Shown piece after piece: positions 3,001 through 9,000 of a DNA stretch of 50,396 bases (positions within the stretch are counted from its first letter, which is position 1; each line of letters begins with the position of its first letter). The stretch is from a plasmid: the sequence record CP155420.1. One strand, 5' to 3'. The position numbers were made by a program.

Positions 3001-6000
3001 ATGAAAGCAGAAGCAACAGGCAATCCACTCATTTTACTACAGGTGCAATTAAATAGTGATCTAAGACAAGAAGAAATGCTTTATAGTGGTTATAAAAGAC
3101 AAATACACAATAATGAAGAAAGTCTTATAACTAATCTTTCAAAGATTGAACTACTAAAAAAAGATATAGCTAAAATGGAAATTTTAAATTCAATCATTAA
3201 AGAAAATAATAGTGAGCATTTTCAAGGAAAGTATTACATTAATGATGATGAAAAAGATTTCATTGTCTTTAAAAATGATACGAGTGATCTAAACAAAAGC
3301 AGACAAGCAGAACTTGAAAGAAATTTTGAAAAGATTGTTAAAACAATAGCTGATGACTATCAAAAAGAATATAAGGTTTTAGAGTTTAAAGGACTGCTTA
3401 TAAGCGGAGAAAGAACAGATTTAAACACTCTTAATTTTTATGTGAGTACTACTGATGGTAAAACAATAATTGAGCCTGAAAATTTGATTTATAAAAGAGA
3501 TGAAAAAACCTTTTTTAAATTGGAAAGTTATGTAAATTTTGGTGGTTTTGTAAAGAGATTAAACAATTTTTATAATGACTTAGAAAAATTTACTCAACTC
3601 AATAAAAATAAGATAGAAAATCTTGAAAAAGAAATTGTGGAGCTAAAAAGCATTACAGGAGATAACACTCCAAAATACAAAAGAAAGGATTATTTAGAGG
3701 CATTAAGAGAAGACAATCGCATTATCATGGATGAAATAGAAAAAATGAGTAAGCAAAAAAACTACAAAAGTGATTTTTTGCCAAAATCTGCAAAGATTTT
3801 AGAAGATTTAAATAAAAACAATAATATTCAAAAAGAATATGATATTGAAATATAATTAGTAAAAGGCAATTGCCTTTTACTTTAATAAATAAACAATCCA
3901 AACAGCCAATGCTATCGAAACAAAAGACACAAGCTTAATTCTTGCACGAAGGATATTATTCTTGCTTTTTTCTTTATAGCAATCTTCTTTATAAATTTTT
4001 AATAACTTATCATCACCTTCTTTTAGATATTTTAAATTTGCTAATTGATTACACATATCAAAAATACGAACTTCTTGAATATAATCAAAATCTTTTCTTA
4101 TTTTTAAATTGCTAATGCTATCTATACTAAAACCTGTATTGCTTTCATTAAATATAAAACCTAAATTTTTATACAACTTATCCCTTCTTTTATGATTTTC
4201 TAATTTTACTTCATCAACTGCACTTAATTTGCCACTAAGTCTTGCTGTTGGTATATAATTTAAAGCAATTTCTAGCATTTTATTTATCACGAATGTTCCT
4301 ATCCCTAAAGATCTATAATCCGAATGTAGCATTATAGAGGAATGAAAATTCCAACTATTAAAATCATATCGCAATATCCAATGGTTTCTATTTTTATTAG
4401 TATTTGGAATAACAGCTATTTCATTTTTCAAATATTGATAGTCTATAATTGCATATATTTCAACATAATAAAATTTTTGATTTTCTTCAAATGCTTTTAT
4501 TTCAAAATCTAATTTAAAACAAACTTCTTTTTCATTTTTCTTGCAAATATAAAATTTGCTAGTATAAACTTCTTGTTTCATTATGCTTTATTCCTTTCTT
4601 TTATAAATTATCCATCTCTTTTAATCTCATTATTCCTAGCACTTGTCCATCGCAAGATTAATTGAGTTAAATTGTAATACAATATAAAAAATTATTTGTT
4701 TATATTTTAGATTAGCTTTATTACAATTTTATACATTTTTTTAAAAAATAAAAAACTTTCACAAATACCATAAAATCATTATATATATTTTTTAAATATC
4801 TATAACATAATACTTTGATTAAATTTGATTTAGAGCATTTATTATGATAAAATGAATTATATTACATTTTAAAACAAGGAGCTAAAATGTTTAAAAAACT
4901 ATTGAGTGTTGTAGCTTTAGGTGCTTTATTGTCAAGTTCTGCTTTTGCAGAAGATATTCTTGCTAAAGTCAGTAATGGAGCAATTAGTGATAATAGTGCA
5001 GGTGTTAAAGTTCTTAGCCTTGATGAGATGAAAGAGGTTAAGGGTGGGTATCGGTTTCAAAGAGATAGTGCTTTTGATTATTATGCAGGTTCTCTAACTT
5101 CTTATGGATATGTTGTTTTGAATGATAACAGTAATGATCATAGAGAAGTAAGCAAACAACTTGGTTATTCAAGTAGTGGATATATCGTAGCCAAATACCG
5201 CTATGTAAATAACCAAAAAGATTACTATTTGCAATATTTTTCAAGCAAATACGGTTCGGGCACAAATATTTGGGCTTATGCAGGAAGTCCTGCTTATAAA
5301 ATTCTAAACGAATTCAGAAGTAAATATTAATTCTCACTCTCCCTGTTCCATTTTATTCCAAAGTGGAACAGATCTTGCTTATATTATTTTAATATATTTA
5401 GGTTGAAGGCAGAAAAATCTAAATTAAGGAATTAATATGAGTATCTTTAGCATCAATGATAACTCAAACTATACTTCTATACTTTCACAAGCAAAAGCTA
5501 ATAAAGAAAGTAAAGAAAATTCTAAAATAAGTTTTGCTAATGCTTTTTTAAAACAAAATGCTAGTAAATTAAATGAAATTCAAAATGCAAATTCACAAAC
5601 TCTAGCAAGAAGTGAAGTATTAAATTCTACTAATACAACAAATACTAGCAATAATACTAATTTTAGTATAAGTAGTAAAACAAATTCTCCTAATTATGAT
5701 ATATCAAGTGAATTTAAAAACTCTATTTATACTCTAAAATATAAACAAGTAGATTTAAGCACTGATACAGCCTATGGTTATAGTGTAGATAAAGATGGTT
5801 ATATGGGAAGTGATTTTAACAAAGCCGCAGGATTGCCAAATGATTTTAAGATACATAAATCTACTTTGGATGAGATAGAGAGATTTAATCAACATGGTAT
5901 GGCTGATGAAACTAGTGGTAATTATTATGATAGTTTTGATATGGTTTCTATTGTTAAATCCTATTATAATAGTTTTAATCAAGTAATAAGTGCATTTCCA

Positions 6001-9000
6001 AATGATAAAACAAGTTTTAGCGAAGCTGATTTAGAGCAATTACCAAAAGGACTAAATTATGGTCGTAATGAAAACAAAGAAAAAATTGTAAAAAATATAT
6101 TTAATGCGGAACAATTTCACGAAGCACAAGCGATTAAGTATTCTACTATGAATTTGGGTATGAACCTTATGAAACTTGACTTTTCTCCGCAAAGCATGGA
6201 GCAAGGACCTTCAAATGAAGGTGAATTTAATCCTGATATGTCAGTTTATCCACAAAATGAAGATGGGAATTATTCTAAAGAAGCTTTATTTATGAGTTTT
6301 TTAAAATCCTATCCGCCTTTTCCATCTCCAAATCAAGTTGTTTTTAGTCCTGAAGCAAAAGTTCGTGAAGCAAAACTTGAGCTAGAAATGAAAGCAAATC
6401 CTTCTTTTAGCGTTTCCTTAGATGACATTATGACAGGAAAAGTTGATTTTGCAAGTTTATTAAAAGGTTATGCACAAGATGGCTGGCTTGATGCAGATAT
6501 ATATGCAATGGAAAAAGGAGTTGCTTGGCAAAATACAAGCATAGGCTATGGTGGAGCTTGGTTTGATAATCAGTTTAATCAAGCAAAGGCTAATGGCTGG
6601 AAAGCAAGCAGTGAAAGTATAAATTCTTATGTTGGATCTATAATGGATAGACTTAATAATCTTATAGGACAAACTAGGGTTTAGGCTTTTAATTAAGGAT
6701 TTTAATATTTTAATATTAAAATCCAAAAGGTTCAATTTCAAAATTTAAAGATTTGGGTAAATTGAGTTTGTAATCTTTGAGTTGTTTTTTAGGATTAACA
6801 ACTAAAGCAAATCCACCTTTATTGTATCTATCCCAAACACTATAAAATTCTCTTTTAGAACTGATATATTCTCCATAACTTGGATCAAGTATTTGTAAAT
6901 AATTACCTTTATGATTTATAATCACCACAAAATGTGGAAAGCGTGGATCATCTTCAATTTTAACTAAAATAGGAACAGATATAATATTCTCTAAAATCTT
7001 TCTATCGACTTTATAAGACTTGCTTTCATAGCCAAGCTTTTTTACTGCATCATTTAAATCTGCAAAGCTTACCATATCTGTATAAAGTTTTTGTCCACTC
7101 ATGGTTTTTAATAAATCTAATTCTGTTAAATTATTATCATCAAGTGTATTAATAAGCGTAGCCAAAGAAGCAGCACCACAAGATTCTTCATAATTTTGCC
7201 TTACAACTTTTTCATTTTTGATTTCTTGGTAAGACTTAACTACAAATTCTGCCTTTAAAAACAAAGGCAAAAGAGCAACCATTAATGCTATTTTTAGAAT
7301 TTTTTCCATAGATTGATACCAAAAATTGCATCAGGAGCAGCAGAGCTTCCACCTAGACTTGCACTGACTGAAACAGCAGTATCTTGATTTATGCTATAAG
7401 TAGAACCGCCACTAATTGTAGGAATTGATCTGATTTCTGAATTTTTTACACCATTGATTTTTTGTTCGGTTTGAAATCTTTGTTCTGCTCCTAAATCCAA
7501 AGTAATTTTAGGGCTTAAAATTATAGATAAATTTCCACCAAAATAAATGCTATTCCCATATTCTATTTTAGCAATTTTAAATTTTCTTTGGGCGTTATAA
7601 CCAAATCCTGTATAAATACTATATACCACAGGGTCGCTATATCCTCTTAAATTTGCTTCTAGGTTTTGGGATTGAAAATAAAAGTTTTTAGTTTGCAAAA
7701 CTGTTTTTTCTCTTTGAATGATCGCTGTTTGAAATTTAATCTGCGGAACAAAGTTAGCAATGCTTTCTCCTGTATAAATAAAGCCTATCCATAAAGAATC
7801 AAAATTTAAAGTATTTTTGCTTGTAAAAGCACCTGAAATAATATTGTTATACTCTTGTCTTGCATAATTTCCACCGCCTGAAATAAGTAAATCGAAATTA
7901 GGTGTAAGCGTATAAATAAAAGTTTGATTCAAATAAAGTTGCTTTGTATCATTCCAAACATTTAAATCTCCATTTACTCCAATATTTGGATAAATGTAAT
8001 AAGAGTGAGGATTTCCTGTGCTAAGCAAGGATAAACTTGTAATGCTTCTTAAGCCTATTTGCTTTTTAAACAAGCTATCGATATTTAGCTCATCGCTAGC
8101 AAAAAGACAACCACTTAAAACTGCCAAAATAAGAATAATTTTTTTCATTTTATTACCTTTTAAAATATTGCTTTGAAAAATTAAGCAAGGAGCGTTCCAA
8201 ATTTTAGTATATTCTTTATATTTTATTCCTTTCTTTTATAAATTATCCATCTCTTTCAATCTCATTATTCCTAGCACTTGTCCATCGCAAGATATTATCG
8301 GATCGTCCTCGCTCTCCTTGCTGTAACTGATTGAGTGCATTGATGTGCAAAAGCATTTGAGTTCGTTTTGTGTTATGAACCATAGGCTGTTTGGACAATA
8401 TTCGCATAGAGTTTCTTTCTTGGGCAGTTTCTCTTCGGATAGTTGATTTATTACCGAGCTCTTGTAAGACTCTCTGTCTATATTGTTTTGTATAATCTCT
8501 CTCATTATTCACTCCTTTATCTTGTATAATTTTATATTTTTTTGTTGTTTTGGCTTTGTTGATCTGTTTTAAATCTTTCTCTCTACCTATTACTGATACT
8601 TCCCAAATAGGTTTTTTAAGTGTTTTAACAACTTCTTGCCACTTGTTATTAATTTTTGCCTTTCTTTTTATCTCATATTTTTCTTGCCCTACTATTTTAA
8701 ATCTTGCATATTCACCCCTTAAAACTTTATTTTCTCTTACAACCCTTTCTAAATCTTGTCCCCAAATTGTAGTTATTCCTTTTTTGGTTTTATAACTCAC
8801 ATAATAACTTTTTTTGGCATTTTTATCTGTGCTAAATTGATAGTTTGCTTCTCCGAAATCCATAACTTGATAATAATGCATTTTTATTTTTGGTGCTTGA
8901 TTAATCTCATTATTTGTATTTAATTTAACTGAAATTTCTTGATTTATTTCTACTTCTCTTTGCTTTTTATTTGTAGCCTTTGCTTCAACTCCTAACTCAT

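Follow-up and report, generated by a model that had tools for sequence, protein, structure and literature searches.

A predicted Sec-dependent, double-glycine-leader secretion cassette with a periplasmic C39 peptidase and a FapF-type barrel on a Campylobacter jejuni plasmid

Results

Overview of the cassette

The DNA analysed here (sequence record CP155420.1; its whole length of 50,396 bp is referred to as the window) is the entire circle of a conjugative, pTet-type plasmid from Campylobacter jejuni, and at positions 4887 to 8148 it carries four genes that we interpret as a self-contained secretion cassette of the Campylobacterales, with machinery related to the peptidase and barrel pairs FapD/FapF of Pseudomonas and NapP/NapF of Neisseria. 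Its product would be exported by Sec, trimmed in the periplasm at a double-glycine (GG) motif and released through an outer-membrane barrel, an interpretation that we hold with a probability of about 0.62. The genes for the GG-bearing pre-pro-protein and for a Cj0814-family protein lie on the plus strand, convergent with the genes for a C39 peptidase and the barrel on the minus strand. The features of the cassette are as follows (window coordinates, strand).

4845..4853, plus: putative sigma-70 extended -10 element (TGATAAAAT) of the GG-protein gene, read from the sequence
4876-4881, plus: ribosome-binding site AAGGAG of the GG-protein gene
4887..4949, plus: Sec-type signal peptide of the GG pre-pro-protein, residues 1-21 (MFKKLLSVVALGALLSSSAFA), assigned from sequence features and from the hydrophobic N-terminal signal found throughout its 164-cluster family
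4950..5048, plus: conserved 33-residue pro-region, residues 22-54, ending in G53-G54, with the predicted C39 cut after 5048; assigned from conservation in 236 unique sequences
5049..5330, plus: mature cargo, residues 55-147 (begins YRFQRDS; 17% Tyr), and stop codon
5364..5378, plus: sigma-54 (RpoN) promoter TGGAAC-N5-TTGC, exact match, 59 nt upstream of the Cj0814-family gene
5437..6684, plus: Cj0814-family partner, 415 residues, no signal peptide, polar low-complexity N-terminus (NCBIfam NF046095)
6716..7309, minus: stand-alone, signal-bearing C39 cysteine peptidase, 197 residues, with Q38, C44, H126 and D142 (PF03412)
7294..8148, minus: 12-stranded outer-membrane beta-barrel of the FapF/NapF type, 284 residues, C-terminal Phe (AlphaFold2 model)
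8185..8199, minus: sigma-54 promoter TGGAAC-N5-TTGC, exact match, 37 nt upstream of the barrel-C39 operon

A bipartite leader defines the putative substrate family

The open reading frame (ORF) at 4887-5330 encodes 147 residues, and its N-terminus (MFKKLLSVVALGALLSSSAFA, followed by ED) has the textbook features of the Sec signal peptide that an initial annotation had assigned to it: a KK n-region, a hydrophobic core and an A-x-A cleavage site. The segment 43-54 (LSLDEMKEVKGG), singled out in the same annotation as a double-glycine leader, fits the consensus LSxxELxxIxGG: positions -4, -7, -12 and -15 are hydrophobic and -8 is Glu. When the window was translated in all six frames, a relaxed form of the leader pattern was found once; 50 shuffles gave none. 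The leader is not at the extreme N-terminus, being preceded by the 21-residue Sec-type signal peptide, and this holds family-wide. No double-glycine leader hidden Markov model (HMM) of NCBIfam, such as TIGR01847, matched the protein at E<=1. Past the GG motif lies the Tyr-rich tail described earlier, at 93 residues and 16 Tyr (17.2%) slightly shorter and less Tyr-rich than the 95 residues and 18% first given; it is also rich in Ser, Gly and Asn.

AlphaFold2 models residues 55-147 as a compact alpha/beta domain without repeats, at a block-mean predicted local distance difference test (pLDDT) score of 84-95, mostly >90. The pro-region lies outside this predicted domain and is of low confidence except for a helix at residues 45-52. 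Because the predicted fold of the cargo is compact, it argues against an amyloid subunit; an amyloid or disordered cargo was set aside on the basis of this model, and the amyloid-like product initially envisaged is unlikely. A Pfam match of the 147-residue protein to Ntox22 (E=0.088, 13 bits against a cut-off of 25) was taken as noise.

A profile search with the GG protein through 1.84 billion cluster representatives (clusters at 50% identity; E<=1e-3) matched 164 clusters, many of which align over residues 1-58 only. Nearly all consist of a signal peptide, then the pattern DLLAKxxNGAxSDNSxGVKxLSxxEMKxVKGG immediately before a Tyr, and then unrelated sequence. The GG motif, on whose conservation in homologues the initial annotation had staked its proposal, occupies positions -2/-1 in 230 of 236 unique sequences (97%). 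Across the same 236 sequences the pro-region has L at -12 (99%), V or I at -4 (99%) and at -15 (95%), and E or D at -8 (92%); position -7 is hydrophobic mainly as Met (55%), and +1 is Tyr in 64%. With a mean pairwise identity of 51%, the pro-region is the most conserved part of these proteins (signal peptide 30%, cargo 19.5%). The cargos themselves fall into two large and ~20 small classes, ranging in size from aromatic peptides of ~40 residues to domains of ~160 residues, in which a pair of Cys is frequent.

Sub-threshold matches to known leader models (TIGR04149, TIGR01847, and the lanthipeptide and Chryseobacterium leader HMMs) fall precisely on the leader segment, with relatives scoring 14-15 bits against a cut-off of 15.7 for the TIGR01847-type model and 14-20 bits against 25 for TIGR04149. 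Pfam and NCBIfam scans of ten diverse cargos returned nothing beyond such matches. Some UniRef entries of the family are already named 'Bacteriocin-type signal sequence'; every named member is a 'hypothetical' protein from Campylobacter, Helicobacter or 'Campylobacterales'.

A stand-alone C39 peptidase with its own export signal

ORF 6716-7309 matches Pfam Peptidase_C39 (PF03412) over residues 33-162 with E=1.2e-17 (64.5 bits against a cut-off of 22) and begins with a hydrophobic N-terminal signal (MEKILKIALMVALLPLFLKA, followed by EF). In an alignment to the ComA peptidase domain, Q38, C44, H126 and D142 fall on its catalytic positions Q11, C17, H96 and D112. The Gln, Cys, His and Asp are invariant in all 65 unique homologues, 58 of which also have a signal-like N-terminus. 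The initial annotation had recognised a C39-like fold with catalytic motifs and a signal peptide of its own, and had asked in advance for a significant HMM match and for conservation of the catalytic Cys and His; on each of these points the sequence agrees with it.

The best NCBIfam matches of the peptidase are to FapD (NF058616, 53.9 bits) and to FilB (NF050078, 51.7 bits), neither of which reaches its cut-off (330 and 475, respectively). The enzyme is 33% identical to Neisseria NapP over 158 residues (E=2e-22), and a profile built from its homologues scores NapP at 90 bits. ABC-transporter models of NCBIfam match it through the peptidase domain alone and far below cut-off. It is hence not of the PCAT/AMS kind, in which a cytoplasm-facing C39 domain is fused to the N-terminus of an ABC (ATP-binding cassette) transporter, and the annotation of p4549-1, a near-identical plasmid, lists no ABC or PCAT transporter. 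One protein-homologue search with the peptidase returned only relatives at least 90% identical. Stand-alone C39 peptidases 34-38% identical to the window enzyme were also seen on three Acinetobacter plasmids (NZ_CP114260.1, NZ_CP127913.1 and NZ_CP127894.1); these could be FilB-like or belong to further Fap/Nap-like cassettes.

An outer-membrane barrel of the FapF type

The barrel gene lies on the same strand as the peptidase gene and overlaps its start by 16 nt, which makes the two co-operonic. The barrel, its terminal Phe (the C-terminus is WKKF) and the operon with the peptidase all agree with the initial annotation; its label of lipoprotein is doubtful. An LSGC lipobox is literally present in the window barrel, but its Cys is absent from most of 42 aligned homologues, among which an (F/L)A-SD signal-peptidase I site (cut between A and S) is conserved instead, and the lipoprotein assignment was rejected accordingly. 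The substrate gene, which had been placed in the same operon, lies on the opposite strand, convergent with the peptidase and barrel genes, and is therefore not part of it; a single operon for all genes is excluded.

In its AlphaFold2 model, a 12-stranded barrel, the protein is closest in structure to FapF, which is also the sole barrel in the Protein Data Bank matched by the barrel-family profile (E=0.065, over the C-terminal 90 residues). The window barrel gives no match to the FapF model NF058560, and its homologues reach 13-20 bits against a cut-off of 700, again in the C-terminal 90 residues only. NapF equals the window barrel in length and aligns weakly, in register, over the C-terminal third. 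About 14 residues separate the signal cleavage site from the first strand, a segment that does not provide the periplasmic coiled-coil and linker of FapF. The mature N-terminus is conserved (SDxLxIDSLFKKQIGLRS) and modelled with low confidence.

Some barrel homologues (P0159, P0199, P0205, P0208 and P0225; plasmids NZ_CP103056.1 and NZ_CP043429.1) are named 'HmcD domain-containing protein' by NCBI, UniRef and JGI. HmcD is a subunit of a Desulfovibrio cytochrome complex. No model in NCBIfam release 20 that could be the source of this label was found, nor literature explaining it.

Linkage and distribution

A scan with the barrel profile, taking one genome per species, returned 76 loci, all of them named Campylobacter, Helicobacter or Wolinella except for one metagenome bin, 'uncultured Bacilli bacterium' (L019), which is probably mis-binned. 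The Wolinella locus has only a fragmented barrel and a C39 gene, without GG or partner gene. Where at least 3 kb were available on both sides of the barrel (n=44), a C39 gene was present in 43 loci and a GG-leader gene within 6 kb in 37, and the linkage is kept across Campylobacter and Helicobacter at barrel identities of 41-98%.

The cassette, initially presented as carried by a conjugative plasmid, is not confined to plasmids: it also lies between kdsB and glnH on the C. coli chromosome, in integrative islands of C. upsaliensis and on the chromosome of Helicobacter apodemus. In the C. upsaliensis islands the barrel-C39 pair occurs in either orientation relative to the GG gene and remains adjacent to it. 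Three plasmids of 7.1-10.4 kb carry only rep/mob genes and the cassette, that is one or more GG genes, the partner, the barrel and the C39 gene. Several cassettes can share one genome. A metagenome scan with cargo-derived patterns, made for the reverse co-occurrence, returned one locus.

Some part of the region 4600-8300 is matched by 175 plasmids; the C39 gene is found on ~44 Campylobacter plasmids and the GG gene on 39. The cassette is hence an accessory module, carried by a minority of pTet-like plasmids. Cargo alleles on pTet-like plasmids fall into identity classes of 100%, ~93%, ~64% and ~59%.

A Cj0814-family partner co-varies with the cargo

The initial annotation omitted the 415-residue protein encoded between the substrate and peptidase genes, along with the sigma-54 control described below. 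ORF 5437-6684 scores 231.4 bits against NF046095 (subfamily cut-off 80), and Pfam PF28266 is recorded for its homologues. Where the sequence extends far enough beyond a GG gene (n=96), a same-strand gene of at least 100 residues comes next in 88 cases, and the downstream proteins that were inspected have no signal peptide. The Cj0814 profile matches 59 of the 88; the remainder are divergent, of ~130-420 residues, and no Pfam family was found for them. The median gap between GG gene and partner, for partners matched in the first Cj0814 search, is 55 nt.

Similarity between cargos goes along with similarity between partners (Spearman 0.40, a value reached in 0 of 500 Mantel permutations), and the leader tracks the partner only half as well as the cargo does. 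When paralogous cassettes of the same locus are compared, their leaders have a normalised alignment-score similarity of 0.63, their cargos one of 0.14 and their partners one of 0.12. At the level of sequence, this co-variation is the pattern of a polymorphic cargo with a cognate partner. Arrays of partners without GG genes also occur, in C. coli.

Many partners (at loci L013, L093 and L094, for example L094 685-1875) share a C-terminal module, FKPIQA-SK--TYKD followed further on by an ending (V/I)D(I/K)xA, which the 415-residue partner of the window does not have; partners seem from these sequences to be modular, with exchangeable C-termini. On a C. jejuni GP013 contig (L021 2563-3858, minus strand), a single ORF joins a GG-leader protein with class-0 cargo to a partner-like C-terminal region (containing FKPIQAESKNKETYKDD and, further on, IDIKA), which may represent either a genuine fusion of cargo and partner or an artefact of assembly or frameshift.

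That Cj0814-family proteins may be secreted via the flagellar apparatus is suggested by the name of the family. Literature searches on Cj0814 and its neighbours, on C39 in pTet and on FapF in Campylobacter, with subscription journals mostly outside their reach, found nothing relevant.

Predicted separate promoters for substrate and exporter

Exact matches to TGGAAC-N5-TTGC occur just twice in the whole 50-kb window, at 5364-5378 ahead of the partner gene and at 8185-8199 ahead of the barrel-C39 operon, and both elements recur at equivalent positions on other plasmids, C. coli chromosomes, C. upsaliensis islands and the small plasmids. In Campylobacter, sigma-54 drives the flagellar rod and hook genes, and its promoters here therefore suggest that exporter and partner are probably co-expressed with the flagellum. 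The GG genes would instead be under sigma-70-like extended -10 promoters, judging from the element at 4845-4853 and from similar TGnTAAAAT elements upstream of GG genes at other loci. Right past the stop codon of the GG gene, at 5343-5371, lies an 8-bp inverted repeat (CTGTTCCA and TGGAACAG) whose 3' arm extends into the -24 box of the sigma-54 promoter; this may be an overlap of terminator and promoter by which the two genes are coupled or insulated.

Comparison with known systems

Among the closest known systems is the nap island of Neisseria, for which it has been proposed that NapP cleaves GG peptides (NapA, NapB and NapC) in the periplasm and that NapF exports them (PLoS Biol 2025, PMC11798529). 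It shares with the window GG-bearing secreted products, a stand-alone signal-bearing C39 peptidase and a FapF-type barrel of ~285 residues without coiled-coil (PMC11798529). Nap products, however, are cationic peptides of <10 kDa that drive autolysis (PMC11798529), whereas each Campylobacterales substrate combines a canonical Sec signal with a conserved 33-residue pro-region and with a cargo, from one of some 22 classes, that measures ~40-160 residues; the nap island also has neither a Cj0814-type partner gene nor sigma-54 control. The leader HMM gave no significant match to Nap peptides, Neisseria NapB included, so that the resemblance is at the level of the motif only. How Nap peptides cross the inner membrane was left open by the authors, who suggested a holin (PMC11798529). 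The long NapB allele of N. lactamica in their Supplement S2 reads MKKQITAAMMLSMITPAMA, followed by NG and then by LAELSQKEMKETEGEW, with a Sec-like signal and subsequently a leader-like motif (LSQKEMKETEG); judged by its sequence, this is the architecture of the Campylobacter family. The term 'signal peptide' is never used in the main text of that paper (PMC11798529), and a Sec-like signal on NapB would answer how Nap peptides get to the periplasm.

The Fap system likewise places a periplasmic C39 peptidase gene beside the gene for a 12-stranded secretion barrel and exports its substrates by Sec (PMC5557850), and FapD is the best NCBIfam match of the window peptidase. FapF is a trimer of 12-stranded barrels (Rouse et al. 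2017, PMC5557850); FapD, a periplasmic enzyme whose catalytic activity is required, has no known target, and cleavage of FapF or FapE has been proposed (PMC5557850). Unlike in the window, where the leader is explicit, Fap proteins have no canonical GG leader (PMC5557850). The window also scores far below the Fap equivalog cut-offs (the peptidase reaches 54 where FapD requires 330, and barrel homologues reach 13-20 where FapF requires 700), its barrel has no periplasmic coiled-coil and linker (284 residues against the 420 positions of the FapF profile), Pfam and NCBIfam searches of the neighbouring genes found no FapA, FapB, FapC or FapE homologue, and no amyloid repeats were found in the cargo. 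Being stand-alone, signal-bearing and next to a FapF-type barrel, the window C39 nevertheless belongs with the FapD/NapP type. In view of the Fap and Nap precedents, a periplasmic C39 with this kind of barrel is therefore a known kind of system, and the initial verdict that periplasmic GG cleavage would be unusual was overstated: the combination is known as FapD/FapF (PMC5557850) and has been proposed as NapP/NapF (PMC11798529).

With class II bacteriocin and microcin systems, whose double-glycine leaders are processed by peptidase-containing ABC transporters (PCAT/AMS, such as ComA and PCAT1), the cassette shares the leader pattern L-S-x-x-E-(L/M)-x-x-(I/V)-x-G-G, a homologous peptidase domain (E ~1e-7 to ComA and PCAT1) and the use of a single leader type for many unrelated cargos. 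It differs in that the leader stands behind a Sec signal peptide rather than at the N-terminus, in that the peptidase is unfused to an ABC transporter and has its own export signal, in that cleavage would be periplasmic, and in its dedicated barrel in place of TolC for passage across the outer membrane. Acinetobacter FilB (NF050078), a putative pilus-system C39, is similarly a stand-alone C39 of a Gram-negative bacterium and gives a similar score (51.7 bits), which is far below its cut-off of 475, and no chaperone, usher or pilin genes lie at the cassette.

Discussion

Proposed route and its alternatives

On the reading that we favour, the 147-residue pre-pro-protein would be made from its own sigma-70-type promoter and cross the inner membrane via Sec, whereupon signal peptidase I would cut after Ala21. 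The exposed 33-residue pro-region, a double-glycine leader in all but position (hydrophobic -4, -7, -12 and -15; Glu -8; a short helix), would be recognised by the periplasmic C39 peptidase, which would cut after Gly54 to give the 93-residue Tyr-rich domain starting YRFQRDS. The 12-stranded FapF-type barrel, presumably translationally coupled to the peptidase, would then take this cargo over the outer membrane, with the pro-region probably doubling as a targeting signal and the downstream Cj0814-family protein acting as a cognate partner of the cargo. Two-step maturation of this kind, by Sec and then by periplasmic GG cleavage with outer-membrane release, was the core of the initial annotation; it is a prediction still, backed now by the conservation of the leader, by linkage (~70 loci and the minimal plasmids) and by the invariant catalytic residues.

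Several observations weigh against this reading, the support for which comes from sequence, predicted structure and gene linkage. No GG gene lies within 6 kb at 7 of the 44 barrel loci, and some pTet plasmids retain partner, C39 and barrel and have lost the GG gene. The relation of the barrel to FapF is mostly structural and is a weak point. A 12-stranded pore is narrow and requires its substrate to be unfolded, whereas the predicted fold of the cargo is compact, and the largest cargo class often has two Cys, which could potentially form a disulfide in the periplasm.

Cassettes that keep C39 and barrel without a GG gene would be more readily understood if the peptidase had another target. The pro-region could then serve as a targeting or holding signal for the barrel, uncut at GG, while the C39 enzyme processes the barrel or another component and thereby opens or closes the channel. 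The proposed cleavage of FapF or FapE by FapD, the target of which is unknown (PMC5557850), fits such a scheme, as does the highly conserved, low-confidence mature N-terminus of the barrel, which could be a plug. This N-terminus has, however, no comparable leader-like GG motif, whereas the pro-region reproduces the entire C39 recognition pattern (-15, -12, -8, -7, -4 and GG) at 92-99% conservation, which is hard to explain without a C39 enzyme that reads it, and we regard this alternative as improbable. We give even less credence to a Fap-like functional amyloid or adhesive fibre, with a Tyr-rich subunit exported by a FapF-like pore and the peptidase in an accessory role: the machinery is FapD/FapF-like and the cargo is rich in Tyr, Ser, Gly and Asn, but the predicted alpha/beta domain is compact (pLDDT 84-95) and free of repeats, the cargos of other cassettes are unrelated, as fits polymorphic effectors over a structural subunit, and homologues of FapA, FapB, FapC and FapE were not found. 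Least probable of all is a chance neighbourhood on a mobile island, in which the GG proteins are ordinary periplasmic proteins with a structural N-terminal segment and the barrel is an unrelated porin. The cassette does often sit in integrative elements and plasmids, where unrelated cargo genes accumulate; against this, the linkage persists over Campylobacter and Helicobacter at 41-98% barrel identity, through inversions and on 7-kb plasmids without other cargo, and the pro-region lies outside the predicted fold and is far more conserved than the folded domain.

Possible roles of cargo and partner

Whichever protein emerges from Sec export, GG trimming and barrel exit, its role can be assigned only tentatively. 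The most likely is that of a bacteriocin-like competition module, with the partner as an immunity or neutralising protein, because cargo and partner form polymorphic pairs, because orphan partners occur and because minimal plasmids carry little else; even so, we would not put this above a possibility. The cargo has no similarity to any known toxin, and an immunity role for the partner is awkward given its size (230-450 residues), its sigma-54 promoter and its annotation as flagellar-dependent secreted, all of which count against the competition module. A flagellum-co-regulated pair of secreted colonisation factors, suggested because of the sigma-54 promoters and the family annotation as flagellar-dependent secreted, is a serious if rather unlikely alternative.

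Setting of the cassette on the plasmid

The cassette region is 99.9% identical to several C. jejuni plasmids. In the near-identical p4549-1, a tet(O) plasmid with a MobP1 relaxase and a type IV secretion system of the VirB type, the two window ends abut, and the circle was opened within a 5.8-kb SNF2-related gene (window 45839-50396 and 1-3855). Compared with p4549-1, the first 4 kb of the window have two 1-nt gaps and the frame shifts twice (ORFs 121-345, 441-875 and 964-3855), so that either the gene is disrupted here or the window contains sequencing errors. At ~40000-45000, the position of tet(O) in p4549-1, G+C rises to 39-48% against ~28% elsewhere, consistent with a foreign origin of the resistance gene. 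Upstream of the cassette, at 3877-4581 on the minus strand, lies a gene for a 234-residue GNAT-like acetyltransferase with a C-terminal hydrophobic tail, for which Pfam matches are sub-threshold, with a weak match to DUF7584 at the N-terminus; this gene borders the cassette in pTet plasmids and not in chromosomal copies.

Meaning for Campylobacter and its relatives

No literature on this cassette in Campylobacter or Helicobacter was found in searches that left subscription journals mostly aside. Three things appear from the sequences to be new: the bipartite Sec-plus-GG leader, which serves a large family of polymorphic cargos, the Cj0814-type partner as an obligatory companion, and the link to sigma-54. 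FapD has been known as essential since 2017 with its target open, and here the sequence itself offers a predicted substrate, together with its predicted cleavage site between G54 and Y55 and its Sec route; with a single cassette on a plasmid, the mechanism could be tested directly. With 164 clusters so far, the leader is a search key for cargo mining, and it might be engineered into a secretion tag.

Few protein-secretion systems are attributed to Campylobacter, and its repertoire would be enlarged by a dedicated exporter encoded on tet(O) plasmids and in many Helicobacter species as well as on the chromosome of C. coli and in the islands of C. upsaliensis. If cargo and partner are toxin-immunity pairs, then the cassette could aid the persistence of pTet and of the small plasmids and influence competition between strains in the gut; as colonisation factors co-regulated with the flagellum, they would be new virulence candidates. 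In its broadest form, which we advance with some reserve, the proposal is that Campylobacter and enterohepatic Helicobacter may have an unrecognised pathway from Sec through a periplasmic C39 peptidase to a FapF-type pore, in which a signal peptide and GG pro-region would be the address tag of polymorphic small proteins, each paired with a Cj0814-family protein, and in which exporter and partner would belong to the sigma-54 flagellar regulon. This would be a new effector/partner system, toxin-immunity or binary colonisation factor, spread by pTet plasmids, and its peptidase may be the first periplasmic C39 enzyme with an identifiable substrate.

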